Assembly (NCBI GenBank): GCA_002069945.1
Contig: MWCH01000004.1
Coordinates: 4,959-68,958 of the forward strand
From: Microgenomates group bacterium ADurb.Bin219
Lineage (GTDB): Bacteria; Patescibacteriota; Microgenomatia; UM-FILTER-40-11
Direction of reading: 5' to 3'
Length of the DNA stretch: 64,000 nucleotides
The position numbers and the translations under genes were made by a program. Under the pieces are notes generated by a model, which ran no database searches, was not told where the DNA came from, and saw only the letters and a program-made list of their open reading frames with translations. Of the stretch, positions 9,931 to 29,678 are shown piece by piece (position 1 is the stretch's first letter; the number at the start of each line of letters is the position of its first letter).

Positions 9931-11262
9931 TTAAGGCTTAATTATCATTTTTTTGTAAATATTTAGTGACTTTCTGTAAGTTAAGAGTGGTAATTTCCAA
10001 ATAAAGAGGGGGATTTTAAGAAAAAAGTCCGGGTATTTATTTGAAAGAACCGAATTTAAATACGTAAAAATCACAAAAACTGATAAGGGAGTAATTCTGC
10101 TTTTTATATTATTACCCGACGTACCAAAACCCAAAACTCTCGCGATTATTGCCAGCAATTGGTGAGAGTCCTTCTTAAAAAATAGCCTAATTTTTTTTGA
10201 TTCTATAACTAGATTTGGGCTCGCCGGCCGGTAACAAATATCTTTTTTAACTTTATTTATCAATTCTTGTCCTACTTGGGTTCTAGTTATAATAAAATTC
10301 ACACCATTATTATTCTTCATGAGCTTTGGAATCCATGAGTCGCCAAAAGAAATGTCCGCTAATTCATTAGTCAAATCCGTGCATAAAAAACATCTTTCAG
10401 GAGTAAAAAACCCCAATGTAAAAGTTTTGAACGCTTCAAGATAGGGAGTTATCTTAATCTGGCCGTTTTTTTTAATTGCCTTTATATACCCTGGCCAACC
10501 CTCACCTCGATACTGGATATTTTTAACTTCGCTTGCCTTGACTTTTAATTGTTTTAAAATAAATCTTGTTCCGGAAATGTTTACTCCCTGTCCACACATC
10601 AAGCCCAAGCAAACAATAATTTTTCTTTTTAATATTGGGTTTATTTGTTGGAACTTTCTTATACCATGAATATGACAAGGCAAGCCAACGACGGCAAATT
10701 TCTTATTTTTTGATTTTATAATTTCAGCGAGGCACTCATTTAGTGCGACCGGCGTATATTTTGACCCTTTCGCTTTAATAACATCTTTTTCATTATAAGC
10801 AATAAATGATTTAGCAATTAAAGGTTCCCGAGAATCCATTGTGGTTACTAAAGCTCCATCAATAATTTTATATTTCAAAAGATAAATCAAAATAGAAGTA
10901 ACTGCTCCTCCTGAAGAACATTGAAAACGTAGTTTTTTATCTTTCGAATAGCCCAGATAGCAATTTATAAAATAGCCTAAATTTGAGTCGTATCTTTTAT
11001 TTTTGTCTTTTCCAAAAATGTCTTTGTTCAAATTTTCAAAGTCTACTCCCAAACCAGGGCAAACTTTTAGACATAAACCACATTTGTTACATTTATCCCT
11101 ATCTACCCTCATCTCAAAATTATTTTTCCTCCGCTGATAAGAAATGGCTCTCGTGGGACAAATTGGAATACAAGTTCCACAATTTGTGCAAAGTTTTTGT
11201 CTGACAACTTTATCAATCACCTTATAAAAAAACTGAAAGAGGGGGATAAAAAAAATTGCCAA
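9931..11262 (-). CDS. FrhB-like (coenzyme F420 hydrogenase/dehydrogenase beta-subunit family) protein with two N-terminal 4Fe-4S ferredoxin motifs
   Basis: CTNCGTCIPICP and CNKCGLCLKVCP (CxxCxxCxxxCP x2) lie at the N-terminus of a ~350-aa FrhB-type body. This family is classically co-located with pyruvyl transferases in capsule/EPS clusters. Confidence 0.6.
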   Translation of the reverse strand: MAIFFIPLFQFFYKVIDKVVRQKLCTNCGTCIPICPTRAISYQRRKNNFEMRVDRDKCNKCGLCLKVCPGLGVDFENLNKDIFGKDKNKRYDSNLGYFINCYLGYSKDKKLRFQCSSGGAVTSILIYLLKYKIIDGALVTTMDSREPLIAKSFIAYNEKDVIKAKGSKYTPVALNECLAEIIKSKNKKFAVVGLPCHIHGIRKFQQINPILKRKIIVCLGLMCGQGVNISGTRFILKQLKVKASEVKNIQYRGEGWPGYIKAIKKNGQIKITPYLEAFKTFTLGFFTPERCFLCTDLTNELADISFGDSWIPKLMKNNNGVNFIITRTQVGQELINKVKKDICYRPASPNLVIESKKIRLFFKKDSHQLLAIIARVLGFGTSGNNIKSRITPLSVFVIFTYLNSVLSNKYPDFFLKIPLFIWKLPLLTYRKSLNIYKKMIIKP

Positions 11263-14866: not shown

Positions 14867-15664
14867 TTATAAATCTCCTATGTTTCTGAGTATATAGTTA
14901 TTATGATGGGCGAAAATATTGAAAGGAGTAAGCTCTAAAAAAGAATTTGCTTTCTTAAGGAGAAAATAAAACCGATTTGTAATCTTCCCGGGAAATTCAA
15001 AAACCATATCGGATTTCCAACACTTTTCTATGCGAAACCCATTTTCTGCAAAAATTTTTTGAGCCTCTTCATCCGAAAACAAGATTTCATGACAGCCTAT
15101 ACCTAACAATCTGGCAAAAAACTCTGCGTAAGACAATTTTCTCGGTAATTTTAATATGAACAAAAAACAATTTGGTTTCAAGACTCTTTTTAACTCTTTC
15201 AATACTATTCTTACGCTTTTAGGGTCAATATGTTCAATAACCGCACACGCCGTAATAATGTCAAAAGAACTATCCGGGTAGGGTAAATAAAGACCATCAA
15301 AATGACAAAATTCAATTTTGTATTTCTTGCTAAACTCAGCCCAAATTTTCACCTGTTGAGTTCTTGTATCCTTAAAGTTGGGATCTTTTTGACTTTGGTC
15401 ATATGTCGTATCGACTCCAAAAATTTGGAGATCGCGAAATATGTCCTGAAGAATTAACGCAAAAACCCCCGAACCAGTACCAAAATCTAAAATTTTCTGC
15501 CCCTTGCACAAATTACCAGACACGTCCCCTGCGGCTTGGTACAACGAATCAACATATAATCTACTGCTCAACATATACTCAATAGAAGTCAAATACGACA
15601 TCACTTCTTTTCTGTCGTTATTCGTTGATACTATTCTAATCATTTCAGAAATTCTTTTTCGCAT
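14867..15664 (-). CDS. class I SAM-dependent methyltransferase
   Basis: Motif I ILDFGTGSGVFALIL with acidic post-I residue (FGVD); ~265 aa Rossmann-type methyltransferase. Confidence 0.65.
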   Translation of the reverse strand: MRKRISEMIRIVSTNNDRKEVMSYLTSIEYMLSSRLYVDSLYQAAGDVSGNLCKGQKILDFGTGSGVFALILQDIFRDLQIFGVDTTYDQSQKDPNFKDTRTQQVKIWAEFSKKYKIEFCHFDGLYLPYPDSSFDIITACAVIEHIDPKSVRIVLKELKRVLKPNCFLFILKLPRKLSYAEFFARLLGIGCHEILFSDEEAQKIFAENGFRIEKCWKSDMVFEFPGKITNRFYFLLKKANSFLELTPFNIFAHHNNYILRNIGDL

Positions 15665-15666
15665 TT

Positions 15667-17115
15667 TTACCTTGATCTATGTGTTACAAGACTATATATC
15701 TTAAAACCCAATCGGTTCCCCAACGCAAATCTTATCCCCTTTGTATATAAACTTTTATTCCTGGAAAGTATATATAAAAGTCCTCCTACTATTTTCCCGA
15801 ATCTAAATCTCAAGATCGTTTTGTCATAAAGAGCGAATCCTTTCTTTAAAACGTCTCTTCTCTCTCCTTCTCTAAATTGAGGGGTTTCAAAAACTGGTTT
15901 CAGATCCCGACTCCCGATATTTTTCACAACATAATCTGGGTGGTAAATCCATGCCTCATTTTTTTCTATCCATTCGTAAAGTTCGGTGCCAGGATAAGGA
16001 ATTACGTTATAAAAATTTACGAAATTTGTTGGTAATTTTTCTGCAAATTTAATACTTTCCATCGCCGTTTTATAAGTTTCCCCGGGGTGACCTATTATAA
16101 AATTGACAGAGTTTTTTATTCCAACCAAATTTGTTAGCTTAACTGCTTTACTAACCTGGCTTAGTTTTATCTTCTTCCCAATTCGATCAATAATGCGCTG
16201 ATTCCCGGATTCGCACCCATAAGACAAAAAAATACAACCTGAAGCTTTCATCTTCCTTAGGAGTTTTAAAGTCACTCTATCAACTCTTATACCGTTGTAT
16301 AGTTGATAAGTAATTTTTAACTTTTTCTTAATTATCAAGTCACAAATATTCTCAGCTCTCTTCAAATCCAAAGTGAAACAGTCATCATTGATCTCAAAAT
16401 TTTTGAATCCTTTTTTACACCATTTATCTATTTCGTTCACCACATTCTCTGGACTTCTTGCTCTAAAACCTCTACCCATAGAAAGTCTCACTGAACAATA
16501 ATTACAACCATACGGACAACCTCGAGAGGTAATAATCGGAATCGTTTGTGTTTCATAATTGGGGTATTTTTTGAATTTAAATTCAGAATAGTCAGGAAAA
16601 GGAAGTTTGTCCAAATCCATAATAAATGGAGCATCCAGATTTTCGACAATTTCTCCGTCTTCGTTTCTCCAAATCAAATTTGGAACACTTTTATAATCTG
16701 TCTTTTTTTTCTTTAGTTCATTAATAAAGGTTAAAAAACTTTCTTCCGCCTCGAGTTTCATTGCATAATCAGCCTTGCTATCTCTTAAAACTTCCGTTCT
16801 TACAGCTGATACATGAGGACCACCAATTATTATTGGAACTTTAGATCTACTCTTGATTTTTTCAATAAGCTCTAAAACATATTTATAACAATAACTGAAA
16901 GCGGTAATGCCTATTATGTCCGGGTTAAATTTTTTAATCAAAAGAAACAGCTTTAAATCGTTGTTTTCTATCGCCTGGTCGAAAATTTTCACCTTATGAT
17001 TGTTCTTCTTTAACACTGCGCATAAATATGCAATTCCCATATGGGGGTGTCCTGGAATAACCCTTTCATCACCAAATAAAGATTTTGTCCAAGGGGAAAT
17101 AAAAATAACTTTCAT
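15667..17115 (-). CDS. B12-binding radical SAM protein (class B radical-SAM methylase-like)
   Basis: N-terminal B12-binding-like Rossmann segment (MKVIFISPW...KIFD...DIIGITAF) followed by the radical SAM cluster motif SRGCPYGCNYCS (CxxxCxxC). Confidence 0.75.
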   Translation of the reverse strand: MKVIFISPWTKSLFGDERVIPGHPHMGIAYLCAVLKKNNHKVKIFDQAIENNDLKLFLLIKKFNPDIIGITAFSYCYKYVLELIEKIKSRSKVPIIIGGPHVSAVRTEVLRDSKADYAMKLEAEESFLTFINELKKKKTDYKSVPNLIWRNEDGEIVENLDAPFIMDLDKLPFPDYSEFKFKKYPNYETQTIPIITSRGCPYGCNYCSVRLSMGRGFRARSPENVVNEIDKWCKKGFKNFEINDDCFTLDLKRAENICDLIIKKKLKITYQLYNGIRVDRVTLKLLRKMKASGCIFLSYGCESGNQRIIDRIGKKIKLSQVSKAVKLTNLVGIKNSVNFIIGHPGETYKTAMESIKFAEKLPTNFVNFYNVIPYPGTELYEWIEKNEAWIYHPDYVVKNIGSRDLKPVFETPQFREGERRDVLKKGFALYDKTILRFRFGKIVGGLLYILSRNKSLYTKGIRFALGNRLGFKIYSLVTHRSR

Positions 17116-17126
17116 AAATTTGTGAT

Positions 17127-18107
17127 CTAAATCCTTTTAACAGTCCTAATGAACTTTAGTCCATCAAAATAACCTCTAAAATAACCCGAAACTAAATCAA
17201 ATCTTTTATATTTTATGAAACTAAGAATATAAAATAATAAAAACAAATTGTTAAATAATATTAAAAAAAGTAGGTATTTCAAACTTGGAGAATAATTTTT
17301 CATAAATATTATTCTGTTGCGAGCAAAATAATATTGTCGATAAGGAGTATCCCGGGTCAATATATTTTCTCCAATATTTTTCGACACTGGAACATCGTGA
17401 TAGACAATTGATTTTGGACAGAAGATAATTTTATAACCCACTTTCCTTGCTCTCATTGACCAATCAGATTCTTCATAGTGCATCACGTAATTCGCATCCA
17501 TTTCGCCGATTTTCTTTACCACCTCACGTTTAACCATCCAAACGTTCGGTATGTGATCTGTCTCTCTCAACTGATCATATTGTCCATAATCAATTTCGTT
17601 CATACCAATGTATTTTGTCCTACTTGTTAATAAGTTTATCGTAGCCCCGGCAAATATAATTCTTTTTGGGTCTTTAAGGTAATACATCTTCGGACCTGCA
17701 AACCCAATATTTTTATCACTCTCCATAACCTTAATTAACTCAATTAAAAAGTTTTTATCAACAATATTATCGCTATCAACAAAGCAGTAATAAGCACCTT
17801 TCGCTTTTCTCATTCCTTCATTTCTCGCCTTAACTACCCCCTTGTTCTTCGAAAAAGTTATGAGCTTAGTAAATGAAAACTCATTTTCTATAATTTCTAT
17901 GGTATTATCGGTTGATCCGTCATCAATTACAATTACTTCATAGTTCTTATAATTATTTTCTAATATAGATCTAAGACAATTCTTCAATTCTTTTGCCCGG
18001 TTAAAAGTTGGAATTATTATAGAGACTAAGGGTTTTTCTATTTTTTGGCCAGAGATAATCATCGGTTTATTTTTTTTTACAAACAATTTCCCAATTATAA
18101 TATCCAA
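17127..18107 (-). CDS. GT2 family (GT-A fold) glycosyltransferase
   Basis: VSIIIPTFNRAKELKNCLRSIL...YEVIVIDDGSTDNT and the DxD motif (FVDSDN). Confidence 0.75.
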   Translation of the reverse strand: MDIIIGKLFVKKNKPMIISGQKIEKPLVSIIIPTFNRAKELKNCLRSILENNYKNYEVIVIDDGSTDNTIEIIENEFSFTKLITFSKNKGVVKARNEGMRKAKGAYYCFVDSDNIVDKNFLIELIKVMESDKNIGFAGPKMYYLKDPKRIIFAGATINLLTSRTKYIGMNEIDYGQYDQLRETDHIPNVWMVKREVVKKIGEMDANYVMHYEESDWSMRARKVGYKIIFCPKSIVYHDVPVSKNIGENILTRDTPYRQYYFARNRIIFMKNYSPSLKYLLFLILFNNLFLLFYILSFIKYKRFDLVSGYFRGYFDGLKFIRTVKRI

Positions 18108-18777
18108 TGATTGGTATTTTTACTTTCCTCAAAAGCCTTAACTGTAAACTTCTTTCATATGCATCATTCCTAAAGCCGATCCTTTTTAAAAAAAAATCAG
18201 TAATGGGAAACCATTGTAAAGACTTATTATTTTTTAAAATTTCCAGATCAAATTTTTTGAATTTTCCAATTAATTGCTTATCGTATGAATATTCTCTTTC
18301 GTGTGTTGGATCTATCACCCAATTATTATTTTTATCTTTATAAAAAAACCAGCCATACCACTTTTTAAACACAGTTGAAATATAAGCAATTCCACCTTTC
18401 TTTAATATTCTTTCGATCTCTTTTATCATTAACTCGTCATCTTGCACATGTTCTATTACCTGATTTAAGATGATTAAATCAATTTCTGAATTTTTAATTT
18501 TAGAAATATTGCAGACATCAGAGACCATACACTTAATTCTACCGTCAATACGTTTAACATTTGCAATACGATCCTTTGAAATGTCGATCGCATATATCTT
18601 GCTAAATTGACCCAACAATTTTTTCTTACCTAAAGCATATAGAATAGACCCATCCCCACAACCTAGATCTGCCAAACTATTAAAACTCTTATTGTTAAGA
18701 ACTAATTTCACTATTGTAGAAGGCAAATCGTCGGTATAATAGTGAATAAATTTTTTTGAATATTGATCTATCTCCAT
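18067..18777 (-). CDS. class I SAM-dependent methyltransferase
   Basis: Motif I LADLGCGDGSILYAL with acidic post-I residue (IDIS). The ORF track gives the start at 18849, but the internal Met (MEIDQYSKK..., about 18777) avoids an 82-nt overlap with the upstream GT2 gene, so I prefer it. Confidence 0.6.
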   Translation of the reverse strand: MEIDQYSKKFIHYYTDDLPSTIVKLVLNNKSFNSLADLGCGDGSILYALGKKKLLGQFSKIYAIDISKDRIANVKRIDGRIKCMVSDVCNISKIKNSEIDLIILNQVIEHVQDDELMIKEIERILKKGGIAYISTVFKKWYGWFFYKDKNNNWVIDPTHEREYSYDKQLIGKFKKFDLEILKNNKSLQWFPITDFFLKRIGFRNDAYERSLQLRLLRKVKIPIIGYYNWEIVCKKK

Positions 18778-19751
18778 AATATTTTTCTGATAGAGTAATA
18801 ACTGTAGATAAATAAAGTGAGAATAGTAATGAGAGGGTGGAAAACCCAATTAATGTTTTTTTTATTTTTATAGCCAATTAGAGAATCTATAAAAAGCGGT
18901 AATATCAATAACGATTTCACAATTAATATTAATAATTTAGCTTCGTTTACCTTAAAATAGTACTTACGCTCAAACTCTTCTCCTTTAAATCTTCTTGCTC
19001 TTCTGGCTTTTTTCATTAAGAAAGTTTTTATAGAACCATCCTGCTTATGTATTACTCCACAATGTACCTTCGCATATAAGTTTTTTTTATTTTTAAAAAT
19101 TTCAGCAATAATGTCTGTGTGTAAAAATTTTTCATATTTTATCCGAAGGAGAACTTTCTTTCGTATAAATGAACTATTGGCACCCAAAGGAGGAACATTC
19201 TCATCCTTAAACTGAATAACTTCATAACTATCATTTCCCTCTTTTATGCTGTACCGAGAATCGGTCCATGAACCCTTAAAAAAACACCAACGATCATATA
19301 CTCCCAAATATATTGACACTGGATCATCTCCTCCTATTAGAGAAATGTACTGAGTTATCTTGTCATCGGTTATTCTCGACTCATAAAATAGTGGCTCAGA
19401 AACACAAACATCCTGATATTCCATGAACGGCCTAACTACTTTAATCAGAAACTTTTTATCAATTAAAAAATTATCCGCATCTACAAATCCTAAAACATCT
19501 CCACTTGATTTTTCTATCCCTATTACCCTTCCGACTTCTTCAACCTTATCAGGATTCATATACACCTTTCCTGTATAGTTTTTGGCGATTTTTAAGGAAT
19601 TGTCCTTTGAAAATCCATCAACAATTATTATTTCAATTTTACTTTTAGGATAATCTTGCTGCGTTAAATACCTTAAACACTCTTCTAGCGTTGCGGCATT
19701 ATTATAAGTGGGTATGACTATCGATACCGAGGGTAAATTTTTAGTGGCCAT
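18768..19751 (-). CDS. GT2 family glycosyltransferase
   Basis: VSIVIPTYNNAATLEECLRYL...IEIIIVDGFSKDNS and DxD (FVDADN); a C-terminal TM helix. Confidence 0.7.
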   Translation of the reverse strand: MATKNLPSVSIVIPTYNNAATLEECLRYLTQQDYPKSKIEIIIVDGFSKDNSLKIAKNYTGKVYMNPDKVEEVGRVIGIEKSSGDVLGFVDADNFLIDKKFLIKVVRPFMEYQDVCVSEPLFYESRITDDKITQYISLIGGDDPVSIYLGVYDRWCFFKGSWTDSRYSIKEGNDSYEVIQFKDENVPPLGANSSFIRKKVLLRIKYEKFLHTDIIAEIFKNKKNLYAKVHCGVIHKQDGSIKTFLMKKARRARRFKGEEFERKYYFKVNEAKLLILIVKSLLILPLFIDSLIGYKNKKNINWVFHPLITILTLFIYSYYSIRKILWR

Positions 19752-20199
19752 TAAAAGCAGATATATTAAAATTGTAAATAAATCTACGAATAAGAAAATA
19801 TGCTAACGGAGCACGAACAAAAGGCGACTGATCAATTATTAGATGACAAAAATATGGCAAAATTAATGCCCAAAAAATTCCTGGTATTCTTTTGAAAAAC
19901 TTCCTTGCGAATAACCCTAAAATCAATAAATATTCCCAACCATGAAATAAAACAAATACTTTATTTGTCGCCTTGACATAAACATCCGGCTTAAAAAAAT
20001 CCAGTAAATTTAATTTTCCCTGTACCGCAGTAATTGAATAATAAAAAAAATCAAAAAAATGATCAACGTCAATTAAAATTCCCGTTAAATAAGAAATCAT
20101 TACTAACCGAAGATCGTGATATTTCCGCCAAAGGCAAACAGTAATTAAGGAAGTCACCAATAGATGCTTTGATAAATCAACAATTGTGTTTTGGGGCAT
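19741..20199 (-). CDS. small membrane protein, possible DUF457/YdjM-like membrane-bound metal-dependent hydrolase
   Basis: 152 aa with about four TM helices and the signature LTGILIDVDHFFD. Weak family call. Confidence 0.3.
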   Translation of the reverse strand: MPQNTIVDLSKHLLVTSLITVCLWRKYHDLRLVMISYLTGILIDVDHFFDFFYYSITAVQGKLNLLDFFKPDVYVKATNKVFVLFHGWEYLLILGLFARKFFKRIPGIFWALILPYFCHLIIDQSPFVRAPLAYFLIRRFIYNFNISAFNGH

Positions 20200-20213
20200 T
20201 TTATCTTATTTAA

Positions 20214-21737
20214 TTATTTAAACTCCAATAACTTACCGAAATATTTCAAAGCCTGAAAACCAACGTATTTGACTCCATCAATCGTCCTTAATTGGCTAAG
20301 AGTATTAATTATAAATCTCGGCGTCCAAATTGAACGGTTGTAAAGACCGCGTACTGCTGCCATTAAATCACTCTCCTCTATTTTTGTTTTCATAATCGGC
20401 TCGCGCATATCGTAACGGTTCCAATCTGTCGTTTTTAAAAGATTATTTTTCCGGCAATATTCAAATAAAGGAGTTCCCGGATAAGGAATCACCACTGTCG
20501 CCTGAAGAGAATCCGCTAATCCTTTCTTAAAAAAATCGGAAGCTAAAGCAAGAGTCTTTTCAATATCATGCCGATTCTCCCAGGGATACCCAACCATCAC
20601 GGTTAGATGGGGCATTAAATCGGCTTTTTTTGCGTGTTTTAAAACCTGTTCAATCTGCCCAATTTTAAGATTTTTGTTAATTTTATCAAGGGTTCTTTGA
20701 TTTGCCGATTCCAGCCCGTAAAGAATAAAACGAAAACCGGCCTTGCCCATCAATCGGTAATCTTCCTCTTTTAATCCGGAATTAAAACGTTGGTTGCAAT
20801 TAAACCTTATCTTTTTGTGGTAACCCCGTTTAATCATTCCCAAACAAAATTCTCTTAGCCAATCTCCGACCGGAAAGCTGCCGCTGTCGTCCATAATCTC
20901 CCGAACTTGATATTTTTCAATTAACTCCCCAATCTCGTCTAAAGCCTTTTCAACTTTAACTGAACGGAAACAGGCCCCCGGAAATAGCGTTGTCCAGGAA
21001 CAAAAGGTGCATTTGCCCCACCAACAATCCCGCCCAAACATTGTATAAGCACCCGGCGCCCGGTAAAAATTGGAATTTTTGTATGCATAAAGCTCCCATC
21101 TTGTTAATTCCCTGTCAATCATCGGCAAACTGTTTAAATCATGATTTAGTTGAAATTTCCCTGTACTTGAATAATTTACACTTTTTATATTTTTTCTTTG
21201 TAATTTTTCCTTTTTAATTTTTAATTTTTCATTTTGACGGTACCAAATTCCGGGATCCAGTTTTTCCCCTTTTGAAAGATGATTGGCTATGCTTAAAAGC
21301 AGAAAATCGTAATCTCCACCGGTGATAATAAAATCAACCGGACAATTTTCCATAGATTCTTCCGGCAAAGCAGTTACATGGTCGCCCATCAAGATAGTGA
21401 TTGGAGGTTGGCAATTAGTAACTAGTGATTTGAGATCTCTAACAATTTTCCAATACTCTTTAATTACCGGAGTTTTGGATTCTAAGGCGATGATATCCGG
21501 CTTGATTTTTTTAATCTCCGCCAACCATTTTTCATAAGTCCATTTTTCCGCTAAGCCATCCAACCATTTAACTTCATAGCCATTTTTTTGCAATAAAGTT
21601 GCCGCCGAAGCCGGAATCACCGGATAAATAAAATAAGACAAAGGTCCGGAAGTAGTCCATTGGAATTGGCGATTTTGGGAAATTTGCGGTACTCCCTTTT
21701 TGGTATTTAACGGCGGATATCCAATAACAATTTTCAT
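20214..21737 (-). CDS. B12-binding radical SAM protein (second copy)
   Basis: N-terminal B12-binding-like domain (MKIVIGYPPL...IIALESKTP) and a Cys cluster CWWGKCTFCSW (Cx4CxxC) in a radical-SAM-sized body; distant paralog of 15667-17115. Confidence 0.6.
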   Translation of the reverse strand: MKIVIGYPPLNTKKGVPQISQNRQFQWTTSGPLSYFIYPVIPASAATLLQKNGYEVKWLDGLAEKWTYEKWLAEIKKIKPDIIALESKTPVIKEYWKIVRDLKSLVTNCQPPITILMGDHVTALPEESMENCPVDFIITGGDYDFLLLSIANHLSKGEKLDPGIWYRQNEKLKIKKEKLQRKNIKSVNYSSTGKFQLNHDLNSLPMIDRELTRWELYAYKNSNFYRAPGAYTMFGRDCWWGKCTFCSWTTLFPGACFRSVKVEKALDEIGELIEKYQVREIMDDSGSFPVGDWLREFCLGMIKRGYHKKIRFNCNQRFNSGLKEEDYRLMGKAGFRFILYGLESANQRTLDKINKNLKIGQIEQVLKHAKKADLMPHLTVMVGYPWENRHDIEKTLALASDFFKKGLADSLQATVVIPYPGTPLFEYCRKNNLLKTTDWNRYDMREPIMKTKIEESDLMAAVRGLYNRSIWTPRFIINTLSQLRTIDGVKYVGFQALKYFGKLLEFK

Positions 21738-21784
21738 AAACTTGAGTATAACATAACAAATGCCGGCGAAGAATAAATATTTTT

Positions 21785-22825
21785 CTATCCGCCAAGATAT
21801 TTTCTTTTAGCAAAATCAACCTTATGAGGATGAGTTTTAAGATCTTTTTGAAAAAAACCAAAAGGAAATAAAAATCCATAAGTTAGATGAGTAGCCAGAA
21901 TTGAAGCCATAACCAATATTAATAAATATAAATTTTTCTCTTTTAAAAAAACTTCTAAGCCGGAAAGAAATAAAAGTAAAAAGTAAAAAGTAAAAAGTAA
22001 AAAGTAAATAAAACGAATAGCTGGGGAAAAAAAAGAAAATATTCCCCCGATGATTAACCCATAAACACCGATGCTGGGCAAAAAATAACCGATCCTAAAT
22101 GATGTCTCGGGAAATTTTTTGGCAAAAAAACCTCGACGGAGAGCATATCGGCTGATTTGTTTCAAATGAGATACTAAAACCGGCCGGCGATGGTGGTAAA
22201 CCAAGACTTTGGGATCATAAATAATTTTTTTGCCCAATTTCTTGGTTAAGTCCAAACAAAGTTTGGTATCTTCTCCAGGCCAATGATTAATATCAAAACC
22301 TCCTATTTCTTCAAAATCTTTTTTTCTGACCAAAAGATTGACAGAGGGAAAATCGTCAACTTCCCTTCGGGACATAATTCGATTTCGATAAACTCCGGCG
22401 CCACCGCTGCCCAAATAGGATGCCCAAACCCAACCGGATGCCTTTTGGTAGACATTGTCTGTCGGAGGCGTTAGGGTCGGACCACAGACGGCAGCGATTG
22501 GTGATTGGTGATTGGCGATTGGTGATTGGAAAATTTCAAATGCGTTTTTTAGCCAATTTTTAGAGGGATAAGAATCGTCGTCAAGAAAGGCTAAAATTTC
22601 TCCCTTGGCCATTTTAGCCCCCAAATTTCTTTTATAAGCCGGCGTTGGCTTGCCGCTGGCAATTACTTTTGTTCCGGCCAGTTTTTCCTGCTTATCGGTA
22701 ATAATGATTATTTCAAATCTGTTTTCTGATTGATTTAAAAGATACCTAACGGTTTCTTTAACGTAAGGGGTTATCGTTCTGACAGGAATAATAATAGAAG
22801 CCAGTATCTTCTCCTGTTTTTTCAT
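21785..22825 (-). CDS. GT2 glycosyltransferase with C-terminal TM helices (candidate polyprenyl-phosphate sugar synthase, ArnC/GtrB/DPM-like architecture)
   Basis: ASIIIPVRTITPYVKETVRYL...FEIIIITD, DxD (LDDDS), GED catalytic motif (HWPGEDTKL), then two or three C-terminal TM helices. The gene contains two heptanucleotide tandem repeat tracts (see repeats). Confidence 0.6.
   Translation of the reverse strand: MKKQEKILASIIIPVRTITPYVKETVRYLLNQSENRFEIIIITDKQEKLAGTKVIASGKPTPAYKRNLGAKMAKGEILAFLDDDSYPSKNWLKNAFEIFQSPIANHQSPIAAVCGPTLTPPTDNVYQKASGWVWASYLGSGGAGVYRNRIMSRREVDDFPSVNLLVRKKDFEEIGGFDINHWPGEDTKLCLDLTKKLGKKIIYDPKVLVYHHRRPVLVSHLKQISRYALRRGFFAKKFPETSFRIGYFLPSIGVYGLIIGGIFSFFSPAIRFIYFLLFTFYFLLLFLSGLEVFLKEKNLYLLILVMASILATHLTYGFLFPFGFFQKDLKTHPHKVDFAKRKYLGG
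21971..22004 (-). repeat. heptanucleotide tandem repeat (TAAAAAG)x4 preceded by TAAAAG, inside the GT2 ORF 21785-22825
   Basis: Plus strand taaaag taaaaag taaaaag taaaaag taaaaag; encodes part of a C-terminal TM helix (IYFLLFTFYFLLLF). Confidence 0.6.
22495..22529 (-). repeat. heptanucleotide-periodic tandem repeat (YGATTGG)x5, equal to a 21-nt protein-level repeat QSPIANH-QSPIA, inside the GT2 ORF 21785-22825
   Basis: Plus strand cgattgg tgattgg tgattgg cgattgg tgattgg; in the coding frame TTC CAA TCA CCA ATC GCC AAT CAC CAA TCA CCA ATC GCT. Confidence 0.6.
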
Positions 22826-23610
22826 TTTTTAAAAATTAGCCTCGGATCGGAATACCATCTTTTTTTGTTTTTATCGTCATAATAGTGTAAAAAATTAAGT
22901 CTATAGATAATGGCGAGTGTATCAATAAAAGCATTAAGCATCCACTTCGGAGTTCCGGCGTGAGTTAAATCAGTAAAATTATAATTCAATTTTATCGGTG
23001 CTTCATAAATCTTTTTAAAGCCAAGATGGTTAGCTACCGCCAACATTTCTAAATCAAAAGCATACCTTTTAACCGCCAAGCGCGGCAAAACAGCTTCTAG
23101 AACTCGCCTCTTGTAAATCTTTAAACCGGCTTGAGTATCACGAACGTTAAGGCCGGTAAAAAAACGAACAAAAAGCTGGTAGAGCCAACTGATAATCTTT
23201 CGGCTTCTTGGGTAATTAACTTGTGAAGCAGGATGTCTTTTCGACCCGACAATAATATCCGCGTTATACCACTCCATGTGTTCCAAAATCATACTGATAC
23301 CGTTCGGGTCAATCTCCATCCCGGCGTCAATAAAAGCAATCAGATCTCCCCTTGTCCTCGCCATGCCGTAACGAACAGCATAACCCTTGCCTCGATTTTT
23401 TTTATAACTAATTACCTTAACCTTTTTTGATTTAATTTTTTTCGCTTCTTCATAAGTCCGATCTTCTCTGCCGTCAACCACAACAACAATTTCATAATCA
23501 TATCTAATCCTATCTAAAACTTCTATCACTCTTTCAATATCTTGAGTTATTGTTTTCTCTTTAAGATAGGCAGGAATTACAACGGAAAGAAAATGAATAT
23601 GATTTTTCAT
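22822..23610 (-). CDS. GT2 family glycosyltransferase (soluble, DPM1/polyprenol-P-sugar-synthase-like)
   Basis: LSVVIPAYLKEKTITQDIERV...YEIVVVVDGREDRT, DxD (FIDAGME). I prefer the internal start (MKNHIHF...) because its ATG overlaps the mtnP stop as ATGA; the ORF-track start is 23643. Confidence 0.6.
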   Translation of the reverse strand: MKNHIHFLSVVIPAYLKEKTITQDIERVIEVLDRIRYDYEIVVVVDGREDRTYEEAKKIKSKKVKVISYKKNRGKGYAVRYGMARTRGDLIAFIDAGMEIDPNGISMILEHMEWYNADIIVGSKRHPASQVNYPRSRKIISWLYQLFVRFFTGLNVRDTQAGLKIYKRRVLEAVLPRLAVKRYAFDLEMLAVANHLGFKKIYEAPIKLNYNFTDLTHAGTPKWMLNAFIDTLAIIYRLNFLHYYDDKNKKRWYSDPRLIFKK

Positions 23611-24410
23611 CAAAATTGAGCACCAATAAGCGCTTTTTGACAATTACAAACCGATTCTAACGGCCAATTTTTAATCATCTCTAAAATAATCTTTTTTGTC
23701 TTCACTATATTTTTTTTGAACTCGTTAATAATTGTTTCAACCGAGACCGCTTTAACTTTACCGCTGGCAACCAAGCCAGCGTCATAATCGGTAACTACTG
23801 CAATTCCGCAATAACAAATTTCTTTTTCTCTTGCCAAAACTACCTCGGGGTATTCGGTCATATTTATAGTCTCCCAACCCATATTTGTATACCACGATGA
23901 CTCAGCAGCGGTAGAAAAACGCGGTCCTTGAATAATAACCACTGTTCCTTTGGGATGAAAAGGCAATTTTAATATTTCGGCCGTTTCAATCGCTAATTTT
24001 CTCAACTGGGGACAATACGGAAAAGCGGTTGAAACATGAGTCGCAACCGGACCATCATAATAGGTATCAATTCTTCCTTTGGTTCTGTCCACAAATTGGT
24101 CCAAAATCACAAAATCTCCCGGCTTGATTTTCTTTTGCAACGACCCAACCGCGTGAGAAGTAATTATTCTCCTTACCCCTAATTCTTTTAATGCCCAAAT
24201 GTTAGCTCGGTAGTTAATTTGATGAGGAGGAATATTGTGAGTCTTTCCGTGTCTTGGCAAAAACGCCACTTTTCTTCCGGCGATTTCTCCCAAAGCGATC
24301 TGATCGGAAGGCGAACCGTAAGGAGTTTCAATCTTTACTTCCTTTAAATTTGACGCCAAATCATAAAATCCCGATCCTCCGATTATCCCGATTTCCGCCT
24401 TATTATCCAT
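23610..24410 (-). CDS. mtnP: S-methyl-5'-thioadenosine phosphorylase (MTAP-type purine nucleoside phosphorylase)
   Basis: N-terminus KAEIGIIGGSGFYDL..., 266 aa, PNP/MTAP family pattern (GVRRIITSHAVGSL, TVVIIQGPRFST..ES). Confidence 0.8.
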   Translation of the reverse strand: MDNKAEIGIIGGSGFYDLASNLKEVKIETPYGSPSDQIALGEIAGRKVAFLPRHGKTHNIPPHQINYRANIWALKELGVRRIITSHAVGSLQKKIKPGDFVILDQFVDRTKGRIDTYYDGPVATHVSTAFPYCPQLRKLAIETAEILKLPFHPKGTVVIIQGPRFSTAAESSWYTNMGWETINMTEYPEVVLAREKEICYCGIAVVTDYDAGLVASGKVKAVSVETIINEFKKNIVKTKKIILEMIKNWPLESVCNCQKALIGAQF

Positions 24411-24439
24411 AATCCGTTAATTCTTTAATATTTTAATCT

Positions 24440-24480
24440 TTTAATTCGCCTGTCCCTCCGAAGCCCCGAAGGGGCGAAGG
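24440..24480 (-). promoter_or_regulatory. GC-rich hairpin island between apt and mtnP
   Basis: CCTCCGAAGCCCCGAAGGGGCGAAGGGG is about 70% GC in a ~30% GC context. It contains the perfect hairpin GCCCC-GAA-GGGGC (5-bp G/C stem) and a tandem CGAAGGGG x2; no U-tract follows on the coding (minus) strand. Confidence 0.3.
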
Positions 24481-24489
24481 GGAATTAAA

Positions 24490-25023
24490 TTACTTATAGT
24501 TTACCAATGTAAATAATTTATATTTCTTTAACCTTTCCCTCCCGTGAAGATAATCCAAAATGATCAAAAAAGCCGCTCCTATTACTTTTCCTCCCAACTT
24601 CTCCACTAATTTAGCGGTCGCTTCCATCGTCCCTCCTGTCGCCAAAACATCATCAACCAACAAAACTTTCTCATTCTTTTGAATTGAATCCCGATGAATT
24701 TCCAAGATTGACTTTCCGTATTCCAAATCGTATTCAACCGATTCGGTTTTATAAGGAAGCTTTCCTTTTTTCCTGACCATAACCATCCCGGCGCCCAATC
24801 GATTGGCCAAAATTCCCGCCAGAATAAATCCCCGGGCATCAACTCCGACAACCTTATCTATTTTTAAACCTTTTAATTTCTTAAGAAGCTCATTAATCGC
24901 TTCCTTAAACATTAATTTATCTTCCAAAAGCGGGCAAATATCCCTGAAAACGACACCTTTCTGGGGAAAATCAGGAATATCTCTAATCTTACTTTTAAAG
25001 TCCATCATAACAATATAAAACAT
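24490..25023 (-). CDS. apt: adenine phosphoribosyltransferase
   Basis: 177 aa with VVGVDARGFILAGILANRLGAGMVMVRKKGKLP and the PRPP-binding motif VLLVDDVLATGGT. Confidence 0.85.
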   Translation of the reverse strand: MFYIVMMDFKSKIRDIPDFPQKGVVFRDICPLLEDKLMFKEAINELLKKLKGLKIDKVVGVDARGFILAGILANRLGAGMVMVRKKGKLPYKTESVEYDLEYGKSILEIHRDSIQKNEKVLLVDDVLATGGTMEATAKLVEKLGGKVIGAAFLIILDYLHGRERLKKYKLFTLVNYK

Positions 25024-25044: not shown

Positions 25045-26205
25045 TTAAGCTATCCAATATCCGTTTAAAAAGAAAGCAATTGAAACCAACCATAAAATTC
25101 CGCATAAAATTATTAAAGAATTGCTGACAACTTTATCCTTAATCAACCCTAATAAAATAAAGCAAGGAAACAAAGATAAAGCAAATCTGGGCATTGATAA
25201 AAATGTCCCGGACAATGTCGGAATTAAGTAGGCCAAAAAGGAAAAAATTAAATAAGAGCTTCTTACCCCATTTTTGTAAGCCAAAAACAACAACGTCAGA
25301 AATCCAACGGCAGTCAATAATTCCAACCAAACGGCAAAATATAAAGGATCCCATTTGGTCGTAAAGATCATTTTCAGATAACGCCAAAAAACCTGATAAA
25401 TCAAAATTATTTTGCCTCCCGACCTTTCTGCGCCAAAAAAAGGTTGGACATGCAAAAACATCAATGGATCTTGATAATTTTTCCATAAAAAATGCATATA
25501 ACCAAGAAGCCCGAGAGGAACAACAAATAAAGGAATCAAATTTTTAATTTTTAATTTTAAATTTTTAATTTTATTTTGTTGCCACCATTCCCAAATCAAA
25601 GCCGGAAAAAGACAGACGCCGACAATTCTGGTATTTGAGGCAAGGGCTCCAAAAATTCCCGCCCAAAACCATTTCTCCTTTCTGGCCGAATAAAAACTGG
25701 CCAAAACGAAAAACAAAAAAAGACTTTCCGTGTAAACCATCCCCAAAAAAAACGATGCCGGAAAAACGAGATAAAAAATCAAGGATCGAAAAGCAGATTT
25801 TGAATCATAATCTATCCGGGTTAATTTATAGAAAAACCATAAAGCTCCCAACATCGCCAAATTGGAAATAAAAACGGCAGCCACCAAGTCTTTTCCGCCG
25901 AAAACAGGAGCTAACAACCTAATTAGATTCGGATAAAGAGGAAAAAAAGCCTGCTCATAAAGGCCGTAACCATTTCTGGCAATCTCCAAATAATGAACGC
26001 CATCGAAATTCGCCCTCGGCCACAGTAATTTTGGATTAGACATCCTTGGGCCGTCGTTATACATAAAGCGCAACCGAGGAGCTATCATCCTGCCGGAAAT
26101 CAAAGCAACCACCAAAACAATTACCTGCCAAAAAAGAAACAACCGAATAATAGCCACTAGACTATTTTTATCGTTATCGGTTATGTTTTTCCAAAACTTT
26201 TTCAT
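25045..26205 (-). CDS. GT-C family mannosyltransferase, PIG-V/GT76-like
   Basis: 386 aa, polytopic. N-terminal loop FDGVHYLEIARNGYGLYEQAFFPLYP matches the PIG-V family signature (FDS.HY..IA..GY..E...AFFPL.P). Confidence 0.5.
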   Translation of the reverse strand: MKKFWKNITDNDKNSLVAIIRLFLFWQVIVLVVALISGRMIAPRLRFMYNDGPRMSNPKLLWPRANFDGVHYLEIARNGYGLYEQAFFPLYPNLIRLLAPVFGGKDLVAAVFISNLAMLGALWFFYKLTRIDYDSKSAFRSLIFYLVFPASFFLGMVYTESLFLFFVLASFYSARKEKWFWAGIFGALASNTRIVGVCLFPALIWEWWQQNKIKNLKLKIKNLIPLFVVPLGLLGYMHFLWKNYQDPLMFLHVQPFFGAERSGGKIILIYQVFWRYLKMIFTTKWDPLYFAVWLELLTAVGFLTLLFLAYKNGVRSSYLIFSFLAYLIPTLSGTFLSMPRFALSLFPCFILLGLIKDKVVSNSLIILCGILWLVSIAFFLNGYWIA

Positions 26206-27238
26206 AGACTTTTATTGTTTCCCGAGCTGTTTTCTGCCAGGAAAACTTTTTAACTTGTGTAAAGCCGGCCTTTATAATTTTATCTCTAAATTCTTGGTCT
26301 TCAATTGTTTTCTTTATTCCTTCGGCTATATTCTCAATCGAATCGGGGTTAACCAAAGTTGCCGCTTTACCGGCAACTTCCGGAAACGATGAAGTCTCGG
26401 AAGCAACGACTGGACAACCGCATCCCATCGCTTCTAAAACCTGCATTCCAAAGCCTTCATAAAACGAAGGCTGACAATAACATGCCGCCAAAGAATAAAG
26501 ACCGGCTAATTCTTCTTCTTTAACAAAACCCAATCGGAAAACATCCTTGCTCTCATCAACCAACTTAAGAAAGTCAATCAAGGGTTTATTCTCAATGTTC
26601 CCTCGGTCAAAATTTTCGCTGACTGCCTGTTTGCCGACTACCGCTAAAGAGATCCCGATTTTACGGCAAGCCTTAACCAAACCGGGCAAGTTTTTATTAT
26701 AATTGACATCTCCTACATACAAAACGAATTTTCCCGGCAAAAGATATTTTCTTTTGATCGCCTCCAAGGTTTTAAAATCCGTTATCTTTTTCAATTCGTT
26801 CCCGGCGGCCAAAGGAACGACATCAATTCTATCTTCCGGATAATTCAAAAAATGAACAATATCCTTTTTTGAATTTTGGGAATCGGTAATTACTCTTTTA
26901 ACTCCTTTTAAAGAAAATTTTTGTATTTGATATTTGAGACTGCCCTTCAATCCCGGCGGATAATTCTCGGGAAAAACCAACGGCGTGCAATCATGAATTG
27001 TTACTATTGTCGGCTTAGCTTTTAATAACGGTAGGCTTAAAAAAAAGAAATCAAAGAAAGGATGATGAACCAAATCGCTTTCTGATGGGATATTGTTCCC
27101 TTCAAACTCAACTAGCGAAAAACCGGCAAAACTATTTTTCTTTAACGCTTCCGTCAGCCTCCGTGTATATATCCCGACTCCTCGGAATTGGTGGCCGGTC
27201 TTTAACCCGGAAACGTCAACGGCAACCCTCATTTCCAT
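26174..27238 (-). CDS. GT4 family (GT-B) glycosyltransferase
   Basis: C-terminal EGFGMQVLEAMGCGCPVVASETSSFPEVAG (E-x7-E region) and an N-terminal acceptor domain (VDVSGL...GVGIYTRRL). Confidence 0.7.
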   Translation of the reverse strand: MEMRVAVDVSGLKTGHQFRGVGIYTRRLTEALKKNSFAGFSLVEFEGNNIPSESDLVHHPFFDFFFLSLPLLKAKPTIVTIHDCTPLVFPENYPPGLKGSLKYQIQKFSLKGVKRVITDSQNSKKDIVHFLNYPEDRIDVVPLAAGNELKKITDFKTLEAIKRKYLLPGKFVLYVGDVNYNKNLPGLVKACRKIGISLAVVGKQAVSENFDRGNIENKPLIDFLKLVDESKDVFRLGFVKEEELAGLYSLAACYCQPSFYEGFGMQVLEAMGCGCPVVASETSSFPEVAGKAATLVNPDSIENIAEGIKKTIEDQEFRDKIIKAGFTQVKKFSWQKTARETIKVYEKVLEKHNR

Positions 27239-28041
27239 TCCTCCTCAATATTGTCCGTGCCGTAAATTTTCATTTTGAGATATTTTAAAAACGCCCACTG
27301 GAAATGGAAGCCTGAAAAAAAAGCAAAAACAAATCCCTGCCAGGAATCAACAAACCCTTTATGAAAAATATAAATATTTAAAAAGGTAAAAAGCGGTTTA
27401 ATCAATAAATATTTAAGCCAATTGAGAGGATTAAATAAGTTTAAATTATCTTTAAATAATTTTTCCGCTTCCAAGGAAGAATAACGGTTTTCCCTCAGCC
27501 AATAACGGGAAAATTTTGGGGTAGCCCAGTGCAATAAATCATTCTCAAGCCAACCGATCTTTCCCTCAACTTTCATTTGCTCATGAACGCTTTTCTCCGG
27601 TAATCGGGCCTTGCCCTTTTTGAATAATCTGATTACCGGATCCGGATATTGTCCCCCTTTTGTCAGATAGCGCCCTAAAAAATAATTTTTTCTTTTAAGC
27701 CAATAGGCATTGGGCAAGTGATTGAAATTGCTAACGATTTGCTTAATTTCCCTGGCCAATTCAGGAGAAACGATTTCGTCTGCATCCAACTGAAGAATCC
27801 ATTTACCATGGCAATTATCGATTGCCAAATTTTTATTGGTATGAAACATTGGTTTATTGGAAGTGGCGATAACTATTGCTCCCAGCTTTTCGGCAATATC
27901 TTTAGTTTTGTCTGTTGAACTGCCATCAACAACAACCACTTCGTCCGCCAGCCGGCGGACCGAATCCAAACATCTCTTGATATTTTCTTCCTCGTTAAAG
28001 GTGGCTACGGCTACAGATAAATTTAGTTTGTCTTTAATCAT
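27229..28041 (-). CDS. GT2 family glycosyltransferase (paralog of 55351-56190 and 62395-63276)
   Basis: LSVAVATFNEEENIKRCLDSVRRLADEVVVVDGSSTDKTKDIAEKLGA, DxD (QLDADE). Confidence 0.7.
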   Translation of the reverse strand: MIKDKLNLSVAVATFNEEENIKRCLDSVRRLADEVVVVDGSSTDKTKDIAEKLGAIVIATSNKPMFHTNKNLAIDNCHGKWILQLDADEIVSPELAREIKQIVSNFNHLPNAYWLKRKNYFLGRYLTKGGQYPDPVIRLFKKGKARLPEKSVHEQMKVEGKIGWLENDLLHWATPKFSRYWLRENRYSSLEAEKLFKDNLNLFNPLNWLKYLLIKPLFTFLNIYIFHKGFVDSWQGFVFAFFSGFHFQWAFLKYLKMKIYGTDNIEEEWK

Positions 28042-29678
28042 TGCTCAACAATTCTAAAGGCGTCTCCGAGATTTCCGGGATTAGAAATTCTCGCTATTAT
28101 TCTACCCGACTCCGGAATTTCCTCCGGACTGCCGATGATTAAAACATGGCTTTTCCTCTGTATCTTTTCTAAATCAATCGGCCCAAAAAAATATTTATCA
28201 AAATTGGCAACGGTAGAAAAACCATACCTATCTTTTGGGGTTAATTTCGCTTCTGTCTGAAATTTTTCCGGCGGGTACTTCAAATAAAAAGCAAGTAGAA
28301 TATACGGCTGATCATACTTGTCGGTTATAAAAATTTTATCGTATTTGGATTCGTTTTCTCTAACATAATCGGCTAAATCTTTAAAACCATATTCCCAGGC
28401 AGCCGGATAAATTTTTGGGTAATGAACATAGTATTGGTGCAAATAAAAAGCCATGTTCCATAAATAAAGAATAAAGAATAAAAAACAAAGAATAAAAAGA
28501 ATTTTTAAAGAAAAGGTCTTCTTAATCCAACTGATTAAGTTAACCAATCCGTACGCGACAATAATAATTAACGGGATTACCATATTTAAAGACCTAATGG
28601 CGTGGGGAGATTGGAAAGTCAACGCTGAAGCCAAAGGAGCTATCGCTAACCACCAAAGCAAAAAAAGCCAATTCTTCGGTTTGTTCTTTATTAAAGAATA
28701 TAAACCTAAAAGCAATAAGGGAATCTCCATCAAATACATCTGCCCCATTTCAGGAACTCTATTCCTTTGAATTTCATCTCCGGAAATAAAAAGAAAGTCT
28801 CCGGATAAGTGAGAAAAATAATTATCAAAAAAATTAATTCCGTAATTGATAATTTTGTTGTGAAGAATTTTTGGAATTAAAGAAAAAGGGTCGGAATGTT
28901 GTCCGCGTAACTCATTCACCCGCCAAATTGGGCCGGTATCGGCAAATATTCCCACTCCGGAAAAGCGGGAGGCTCCGGCGGGACCAAAAAAGGAAACGAT
29001 CAAAGGAGCAGCAAGAATTAGTCCAATAATAAAAGAACCGATTAGCCAACTTGAGTTTGCTCTTTTAAAAATTTCTTTCCTGTAATAAAATCCCAAACCA
29101 AAAATTAGCAAAGGAGTAATAATCCGGGCGCTGTGGTAAGTATATAAAGATAAAATAAAAATTAAAAATGAAAAAATAAAATAGATTGGTCTTTTTAGTG
29201 CCCTAAGGAACAGGTAAACAGCAAGGGTGATAAAGAAGGTCGCCGCATTGGTTTCCCAACCGCCTCGGGAAAAATGAAGATGCCAGGGAGAAACGGCAAG
29301 TAAGAGCGAAGAACTTAAAGCTAACAGCCTTGAGCCGAACAACTCAATCACCAATAAATACAAGATTAATACGGTTAATGACCCAAGGATTACCGAAGGC
29401 AATCTGACGGCAAGCTCGCTTAGCCCAAAAATTTTAACAAACGGCAATACCAAATAAAAATATAGTCCCGGTTTGTAATCGTTAAAGGATTGGAAACTAA
29501 TTGGCCAAGGATGGCCAAACTCGTCTTTTCCGGTTTTTAAAAGCGAATAGGCGTTATAGCCGATAGCCGCCTCGTCGGCATTTAACCCGACAGGAAACTC
29601 ACCTATTTTCCATGCTCGCAAAAATAAAGCCAGCAATAATATCAAAAATATCAAATACTTTTTAATCGTTTTTCTCAT
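28038..29678 (-). CDS. GT-C fold glycosyltransferase, ArnT/PMT-like (tandem paralog 1)
   Basis: 546 aa with 11-13 TM helices. First extracytoplasmic loop GLNADEAAIGYNAYSLLKTGKDEFG (DE motif), second motif GLSELAVRLPSVILG, and a conserved soluble C-terminal module (...DKYDQPYILLAFYLKYPPEKFQ...GDAFRIVEQ). Confidence 0.7.
   Translation of the reverse strand: MRKTIKKYLIFLILLLALFLRAWKIGEFPVGLNADEAAIGYNAYSLLKTGKDEFGHPWPISFQSFNDYKPGLYFYLVLPFVKIFGLSELAVRLPSVILGSLTVLILYLLVIELFGSRLLALSSSLLLAVSPWHLHFSRGGWETNAATFFITLAVYLFLRALKRPIYFIFSFLIFILSLYTYHSARIITPLLIFGLGFYYRKEIFKRANSSWLIGSFIIGLILAAPLIVSFFGPAGASRFSGVGIFADTGPIWRVNELRGQHSDPFSLIPKILHNKIINYGINFFDNYFSHLSGDFLFISGDEIQRNRVPEMGQMYLMEIPLLLLGLYSLIKNKPKNWLFLLWWLAIAPLASALTFQSPHAIRSLNMVIPLIIIVAYGLVNLISWIKKTFSLKILFILCFLFFILYLWNMAFYLHQYYVHYPKIYPAAWEYGFKDLADYVRENESKYDKIFITDKYDQPYILLAFYLKYPPEKFQTEAKLTPKDRYGFSTVANFDKYFFGPIDLEKIQRKSHVLIIGSPEEIPESGRIIARISNPGNLGDAFRIVEQ

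Follow-up and report, generated by a model that had tools for sequence, protein, structure and literature searches.

Why do two genes of adenine salvage lie within a very large glycosylation gene array of an ultra-small bacterium, and do they serve the array or the whole cell? The two genes are mtnP (23610-24410), encoding an S-methyl-5'-thioadenosine phosphorylase (MTAP), and apt (24490-25023), encoding an adenine phosphoribosyltransferase (APRT). They are located in a stretch of 64,000 nucleotides (hereafter the window; positions 4,959 to 68,958 of contig MWCH01000004.1) from Microgenomates group bacterium ADurb.Bin219, a member of the Patescibacteria, or Candidate Phyla Radiation (CPR), group, and the window MTAP matches a protein of this organism with 100% identity. 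When the 54 window open reading frames (ORFs) of at least 100 amino acids (aa) were all scanned against Pfam and NCBIfam, the window emerged as a single very large (surface) glycosylation gene array, in which mtnP and apt are the only genes of primary metabolism that were recognised. The original prediction regarded the pair as a built-in module that clears the by-products of the locus's own S-adenosylmethionine (SAM) chemistry, that is, of its radical-SAM enzymes and methyltransferases, and reclaims the adenine. If the placement were adaptive in this sense, it would show ultra-small CPR cells tying the recycling of SAM by-products to envelope biosynthesis. We consider it probable instead that mtnP and apt form a generic, whole-cell salvage pair for methylthioadenosine (MTA), 5'-deoxyadenosine and adenine, kept in the glycosylation operon by descent, and the evidence presented below points to inheritance rather than to pathway logic.

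The mtnP-apt pair and its conserved slot

The 266-aa protein encoded by mtnP on the minus strand (PNP_UDP_1, 1.8e-43) exceeds the curated MTAP equivalog cut-offs (TIGR01694, 305.8 against 274.85; NF005876, 334.7 against 306), remains under the cut-off for methylthioinosine phosphorylase (217.1 against 223), and falls far under those of the purine nucleoside phosphorylase (PNP) models. Its closest solved relatives are the MTAPs of Sulfolobus tokodaii (1v4n, 9e-81), S. solfataricus (MTAPII, 2a8y), and human (1cb0, 2e-64). It aligns over its full length to the solved archaeal and human enzymes and keeps the catalytic motifs involved in phosphate, ribose, and purine binding (LPRHG, GPRFST, INMT, and VTDYD), aligned with those of the Sulfolobus and Aeropyrum MTAPs. 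As the original prediction had held, MtnP enzymes cleave both MTA and 5'-deoxyadenosine (PMC8102628), and activity on both substrates is expected of the window protein from its family membership. The apt product, encoded on the same strand (Pribosyltran, 6.5e-23), passes the APRT equivalog cut-offs (TIGR01090, 222.3 against 185.85; NF002636, 229 against 125; NF002634, 214.9 against 170); the true start of the gene is probably an ATG at about 25008 or 25005, because the family alignment begins at residue 5-10. Judged by curated-model scores, the two proteins are a bona fide MTAP and a bona fide APRT, the identities originally assigned to them.

A substrate range wider than that of a typical MTAP has also been considered. 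The enzyme could act as a general adenosine or purine-nucleoside phosphorylase for scavenged nucleosides, in which case it would form, together with APRT, the main route to AMP, while the ribose-1-phosphate released would feed sugar metabolism. CPR organisms depend on salvage and some archaeal MTAPs accept adenosine, which, together with the archaeal MTAPs found as the closest solved relatives, speaks for such a role. However, the protein scores above the MTAP equivalog cut-off and far under the PNP-family cut-offs, and neither a phosphopentomutase nor a phosphoribosyl pyrophosphate (PRPP) synthetase gene was found near mtnP and apt, which renders this explanation improbable.

The linkage that proved informative is that of mtnP with an APRT gene, since it is found repeatedly in different domains and has been kept even where the APRT was replaced by a non-orthologous one. 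MTAP homologs of at least 69% identity form a distinct clade, and the next group, at about 62%, stands well apart from it. Of 149 MTAP loci outside this CPR clade, 34, mostly from Nitrososphaerota, have apt directly upstream of mtnP on the same strand, and none of the 34 has a glycosylation context. Inside the clade, two members have housekeeping neighbours: one (L085) is located near purH and the other (L086) among genes encoding ribosomal protein S21, YbeY, DnaX, SHMT, and ThyA. Both pair mtnP with an APRT of a non-orthologous type (NF005592/PRK07322; 229-240 bits against a cut-off of 143; L085 5899-6483 and L086 10806-11396), and in L086 the order is reversed, with mtnP preceding the APRT gene. 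Because the APRT has been replaced while the pairing was kept, the selected linkage is that of mtnP with APRT ("release adenine, then re-capture it"), and we regard this as strong evidence that the selected unit consists of these two genes. The adenine-salvage logic that the original prediction ascribed to the pair is therefore sound, given a recurrent, selected mtnP-APRT pair and the cleavage of MTA and 5'-deoxyadenosine by MtnP enzymes. Each enzyme is an ordinary representative of a well-known family, and their pairing is widespread.

The position of the pair within the array is equally regular. To obtain the contexts of relatives, genome and metagenome collections were scanned by pattern, which yielded few close relatives, and proteins were looked up by exact match, the source of most of the informative contexts. 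The gene order PMT_2 (in a variable number of copies), family 2 glycosyltransferase (GT2), family 4 glycosyltransferase (GT4), PIG-V-like membrane glycosyltransferase of the GT-C fold class (GT-C), apt, mtnP, an optional Wzx, GT2, and GT2 recurs in about 17 related loci (L001, L002, L081/L082, L083, L084, L087, L088, L090-L093, L096, L120, L167, L168, and L173, with L169 as a rearranged version). These loci are spread across the entire MTAP clade, from which it follows that the slot is old, and the glycosyltransferase genes around it in relatives are just 42-78% identical to those of the window. In two loci (L002 and L167), mtnP has been kept in the slot where apt has been lost. L167 is part of the 864-kb contig Ga0315279_10000003. 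The placement of the pair is conserved and is no peculiarity of the window genome; the search for mtnP-apt in glycosylation loci of related genomes, which the original prediction had suggested, thus gave a positive answer. Our literature search found no paper on methylthioadenosine phosphorylase in the CPR, and the conserved slot for apt-mtnP in a Microgenomates glycosylation supercluster may be documented here for the first time.

Some database labels in this clade deserve mention. One of the loci (L091; Ga0307380_10000001, an 847-kb contig) carries an MTAP labelled "Bathyarchaeia" in a full Microgenomates-type block, and NCBI assigns CPR-type cluster proteins (P0038, P0064, and P0166) to Bathyarchaeia, Marinimicrobia, or Clostridia. 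Such labels on CPR-type cluster proteins are probably binning or naming errors.

The pair and the radical-SAM content of the locus

The radical-SAM genes of the window lie at 15667-17115 and 20214-21737. According to the clearance explanation, the pair is co-expressed with these enzymes, removes the inhibitory 5'-deoxyadenosine that they release, and reclaims its adenine. The substrate range of MtnP enzymes (PMC8102628) is compatible with this role, and the start/stop overlaps that join the pair to glycosyltransferase genes in the window and in relatives indicate co-expression. To follow the pair across loci, we defined as informative carriers the 11 pair-bearing loci whose downstream sequence extends for at least 8 kb, and sought radical-SAM genes within 10 kb. 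Such a gene is present in eight of them (the window, L083, L084, L091, L167, L168, L169, and L173), and in L169 it is just one gene away from apt, which again speaks for the clearance explanation. However, the remaining three carriers (L001, L081, and L090) gave no radical-SAM match within 10 kb even at a tblastn E-value of up to 0.1.

The reverse combination was found as well. Homology to the PIG-V-like GT-C served to select four relatives, without bias as to mtnP, and three of them (L170, L171, and L172) have the same glycosyltransferase block without apt or mtnP; the gene directly after the GT-C gene is Wzx in L170 and L171 and GT2 in L172. Two of these pairless loci, L170 and L171, keep radical-SAM genes, including in L171 an ortholog of the 20214-21737 protein with 60% identity. 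L170 belongs to the 196-kb contig Ga0394679_029669 and L171 to the 466-kb contig JBNASD010000001.1. In total, eight loci have both the pair and a radical-SAM gene, three have the pair only, two have a radical-SAM gene only, and one has neither (Fisher p=1.0; n=14 loci, giving the test little power). No association between the pair and radical-SAM content was detected in this tiny sample.

An MTAP tree of 148 sequences, built by neighbor joining (NJ), was star-like and did not resolve the order of events, and a tree of concatenated GT4, GT-C, GT2, and GT2 proteins (NJ, 100 bootstraps) was used instead. In this tree, the pairless L171 groups with the carrier L081, and the pairless L170 with the carriers L090 and L002, each with support of 100/100, whereas monophyly of the pairless loci received 0/100. 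The pairless loci being nested among carriers, the pair was lost from the cluster or relocated on two or more occasions, and the cluster itself persisted.

The methylation part of the original prediction found no support either. S-adenosylhomocysteine (SAH) is what class-I methyltransferases and, in their methyl-transfer half-reaction, class-B radical-SAM methylases release, and to our knowledge it is no substrate of MTAP. Therefore, the three methyltransferases of the window (6871-7821, 14867-15664, and 18067-18849) are irrelevant to an MTAP-based clearance module, and the handling of their by-product is not otherwise provided for in the window, as no gene for an SAH hydrolase (AhcY) or an MtnN-type enzyme was found among the 54 window ORFs. 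Moreover, small metabolites diffuse freely, so that genomic proximity is not required for their clearance, and the same pair is found in Nitrososphaerota as well as, among housekeeping genes, in the two relatives described above. On balance, we consider it unlikely that the pair was placed in the array to serve the chemistry of the locus.

In the reading that we favor, a general salvage pair retained by descent, MTAP would phosphorolyse MTA and 5'-deoxyadenosine, and possibly adenosine, to adenine and a 5-substituted ribose-1-phosphate, and APRT would convert the adenine, with PRPP, to AMP. The pair would have become lodged, in one Microgenomates lineage, at a precise slot of a huge surface-glycosylation operon, between the PIG-V-like GT-C gene and Wzx or GT2, and would mostly have stayed there by descent, co-transcribed with its tightly packed neighbours. 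It would serve the SAM by-product and adenine economy of the entire cell, including 5'-deoxyadenosine produced by the radical-SAM enzymes of the locus, without being dedicated to them, and the glycosylation cluster would work without the pair in cis. A conserved neighbourhood in compact CPR genomes can, we caution, mirror inherited operon structure instead of a shared pathway.

Several points weigh against this reading. A pair with no glycosylation function of its own persists at exactly the same junction, while the glycosyltransferase genes on either side are only 42-78% identical, and such persistence is more than a random passenger would be expected to show; co-expression may bring some selective benefit. 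Radical-SAM genes do accompany the pair in eight of the 11 informative carriers. Furthermore, the pairless sample comprises three loci, the trees are NJ trees of short concatenates, and "pairless" refers to the cluster and not to the whole genome.

As to the radical-SAM proteins themselves, both had been described as B12-binding, which applies fully to one of them. The protein encoded at 15667-17115 (minus strand) is a class-B, that is B12-binding, radical-SAM enzyme with both domains above the Pfam gathering scores (B12-binding, 60.4 bits against 32.1; Radical_SAM, 79.8 bits against 29.5), a canonical CX3CX2C motif (CPYGCNYC at residue 200), and best Protein Data Bank (PDB) matches to 9ccb, AprD4 (6fd2), CysS, and TsrM. 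In the protein encoded at 20214-21737 (minus strand), the radical-SAM core is clear (Radical_SAM, 53.8 bits) and the N-terminal B12-binding-like domain is weak, its 28.2 bits lying under the gathering score of 32.1. This protein gives partial matches to HpnJ and BchE and has a CX4CX2C cluster motif (CWWGKCTFC) instead of the canonical CX3CX2C. Its orthologs (55-71% identity) occur in L083, L084, L091, L167, L168, L169, and L171, and the motif DCWWGKC[TS]FC is kept in the five of them in which it was located (L084, L091, L168, L169, and L171).

Directly downstream lies an ORF of 152 aa (19741-20199, minus strand) without any Pfam or NCBIfam match, partly hydrophobic and with His/Asp-rich motifs (DVDHFFD, FHGWEY, and CHLIID). 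Orthologs with 33-61% identity follow the radical-SAM gene in L167 (17354-17827), L168 (15245-15715), and L169 (7847-8272), and genes of similar size occupy this position in L083. The 20214-type radical-SAM gene and the ORF of about 150 aa appear to form a conserved gene pair of unknown function.

Junctions, neighbouring genes and the array

Operon structure was inferred from gene spacing only, and the spacing differs on the two sides of mtnP. On the apt side, the translational coupling that had been claimed for the window does not exist, because a spacer of 79 nt (24411-24489, minus strand) with a G+C-rich hairpin (CCCTTCGCCCCTTCGGGGCTTCGGAGGG) separates the two genes. In most relatives there is no spacer and apt and mtnP overlap by 4 nt; L087, L092, and L093 resemble the window, with spacers 50-90 nt long. 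A role of the hairpin as terminator or regulatory RNA was rejected, since its fold is no better than that of shuffled sequences (z=-1.05); the spacer contains no T-run and no terminator-like site, and the hairpin motif is not repeated in the window. On the other side, an overlap between the mtnP stop and the GT2 start does exist, close to its earlier description as ATGA; its exact form is TGATGA, in which both TGA triplets are in-frame stops and one base of the first is shared with the ATG of GT2 at 23610. Promoter and terminator scans over the 13-29 kb region of the window gave counts at chance level and did not set the limits of the operon.

Upstream of apt, at 25045-26205 (minus strand), lies the gene for the PIG-V/PMT_2-like GT-C membrane glycosyltransferase (Mannosyl_trans2, 2e-10; PMT_2, 4e-07), which has multiple hydrophobic segments and whose orthologs are found directly upstream of apt/mtnP in L001, L002, L081, L083, L084, L087, L090-L093, L120, L167, L168, and L173. 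It is preceded by a conserved block on the minus strand (26174-29678, by Pfam) composed of GT4 (26174-27238), GT2 (27229-28041), and a PMT_2 GT-C (28038-29678), present in the same order in L002, L081, L083, L084, L091, L092, L167, L168, and L170-L173. Beyond this block, the array of PMT_2 paralogs continues to about 50655, so that at least 12 PMT_2-type GT-C paralogs stand in tandem on the minus strand at 28038-50655 (Pfam), with GT2 genes and ORFs of unknown function between them. In every relative examined, a similar PMT_2 array stands before the conserved block. Small genes for a "23S rRNA intervening sequence protein" (PF05635) were noted in the conserved glycosyltransferase block of L168 (9115-9459) and L170 (7771-8145), at different insertion points.

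Downstream of mtnP, the GT2 at 22822-23610 (minus strand; Glycos_transf_2, 1.7e-28) belongs to the polyprenyl-phosphate sugar synthase class (DPMS/GtrB/ArnC-like); its best PDB matches are DPMS (5mlz), GtrB (5eke), and ArnC, and its best NCBIfam matches, ArnC, PgfS, PpgS, and AglJ, are every one under the cut-off. The conserved second GT2, at 21785-22825 (minus strand; Glycos_transf_2, 3.2e-13), has a hydrophobic C-terminal region (hydrophobic windows at residues 262-302) and orthologs with 45-78% identity in related loci. Most relatives (L081, L083, L167, and L173 were compared) have a gene for a Wzx-type flippase (Polysacc_synt) after mtnP and before the first GT2; the window has no Wzx at this place, and none of its ORFs gave a Polysacc_synt match.

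These neighbours raise the question of whether MTAP might supply a sugar precursor. By analogy with the methylthioxylose capping proposed for Mycobacterium tuberculosis lipoarabinomannan (see below), 5-methylthioribose-1-phosphate or 5-deoxyribose-1-phosphate could be activated and loaded on polyprenyl phosphate by the GT2, whereupon the GT-C would pass the sugar on to a surface glycan and APRT would recycle the adenine. Such a scheme would fit the position of mtnP exactly between the GT-C gene and, with or without Wzx, the polyprenyl-phosphate sugar synthase-type GT2 gene, and its retention in the slot despite the loss of apt in L002 and L167. Candidate activating enzymes are encoded in some relatives: an NAD-dependent epimerase between the two GT2 genes in L168, and an NTP-transferase with an epimerase, or a GHMP kinase with a cytidylyltransferase, in L169 and L173. 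However, neither a nucleotidyltransferase nor an epimerase was found in the 64-kb window, and an epimerase gene is present also in L171, which lacks mtnP. The orthologs of the GT-C and of both GT2 proteins persist at similar identity in the mtnP-less L170-L172, and the MTAP itself has a highly conserved, canonical sequence. Taken together, these observations make a role of MTAP in sugar-precursor supply quite doubtful.

Further downstream, the genes named in the original prediction are all present on the minus strand, with the correction that one of the three class-I SAM methyltransferase genes, at 6871-7821 (minus strand; Methyltransf_23, 2e-25), lies outside the range given there. The other two are located at 14867-15664 (minus strand; Methyltransf_11, 4.9e-15) and 18067-18849 (minus strand; Methyltransf_11, 3.4e-16), the latter with an uncertain start, previously placed at 18777. 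Between the methyltransferase gene at 18067-18849 and the radical-SAM genes on either side of it are a rhamnosyltransferase-like GT2 at 17127-18107 (minus strand; Glycos_transf_2, 6.3e-35; TIGR01556, 100 bits, under the cut-off) and another GT2 at 18768-19751 (minus strand; Glycos_transf_2, 6.4e-21). A link to arsenosugars was rejected: several GT2 proteins match TIGR04283 at 43-60 bits against a cut-off of 182, which reflects generic GT2 similarity.

The array as a whole has about 35% G+C, with nearly every ORF at 624-59043 on the minus strand. In addition to many GT2 and GT4 genes, it encodes YfhO, GT87/PIG-U-like and PIG-V-like membrane proteins, and a hexapeptide acyltransferase, as well as the three methyltransferases and two radical-SAM proteins described above. 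A polysaccharide pyruvyl transferase gene (8634-9914) lies directly downstream of a gene (9931-11262) whose FrhB/F420-hydrogenase-beta-like product has two 4Fe-4S motifs, and this Fe-S neighbour suggests redox-dependent modification of a glycan. The only two sizeable plus-strand genes of the window, at 59378-62361, break the co-directional array; one product, of 464 aa, has a weak methyltransferase domain at its C terminus, and the other, of 530 aa, is of unknown function.

Comparison with known systems

With the class-B radical-SAM enzymes (TsrM, CysS, AprD4-like proteins, HpnJ, and BchE), the protein encoded at 15667-17115 shares the B12-binding and radical-SAM architecture and the CX3CX2C motif. 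In contrast to these enzymes, the window proteins reach no curated equivalog cut-off, and the one encoded at 20214-21737 departs further from them through its sub-threshold B12 domain and its CX4CX2C motif. Compared with the MTAP/MtnP family (Sulfolobus MTAPII 2a8y, human MTAP 1cb0, and Synechococcus MtnP), the window MTAP is no different; only its genomic setting is unusual.

In the clusters of the dihydroxyacetone phosphate (DHAP) shunt and 5-deoxyribose salvage, mtnP, or mtnN together with mtnK, is accompanied by genes for an MtnA-like isomerase as well as a class II aldolase (PMC6079011, PMC10986504). The first step is the one predicted for the window, namely conversion of MTA or 5'-deoxyadenosine to adenine and a 5-deoxypentose-1-phosphate. 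However, neither an MtnA-like isomerase nor a class II aldolase was found by Pfam in the 64-kb window, and the partner of MTAP, an APRT, deals with the base and not with the sugar.

The methylthioxylose (MTX) cluster of Mycobacterium tuberculosis has, as the window does, an MTAP gene with a GT2 of the polyprenyl-phosphate sugar synthase type and a GT-C as neighbours, a likeness that holds at the level of enzyme class only. In 2017, Angala and colleagues reportedly assigned the MTAP (Rv0535 region), beside MtxS and MtxT, a role in the MTX pathway of this bacterium. The precedent comes from the MTX capping of M. tuberculosis lipoarabinomannan, in which the GT2 Rv0539 (MtxS) makes the lipid-linked MTX donor and the GT-C Rv0541c (MtxT) transfers MTX (PMC12088412, PMC8780516). 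On this model, the window MTAP would combine salvage with the entry step of a surface-glycan pathway, in which a 5-methylthio- or 5-deoxy-pentose would derive from MTA or 5'-deoxyadenosine, as a CPR counterpart of MTX capping. In contrast to the MTX cluster, the window lacks an epimerase and a nucleotidyltransferase, and in relatives the glycosyltransferase orthologs persist without mtnP; we therefore regard such a counterpart as very unlikely. If it did exist, uncultivated bacteria would be shown to have a previously unknown source of unusual sugars.

The apt-mtnP units of Nitrososphaerota and other lineages, in contrast to the pair in the window, have no glycosylation neighbours. In the order of the genes, with apt upstream, in their common strand, and in their direct adjacency, these units are like that of the window.

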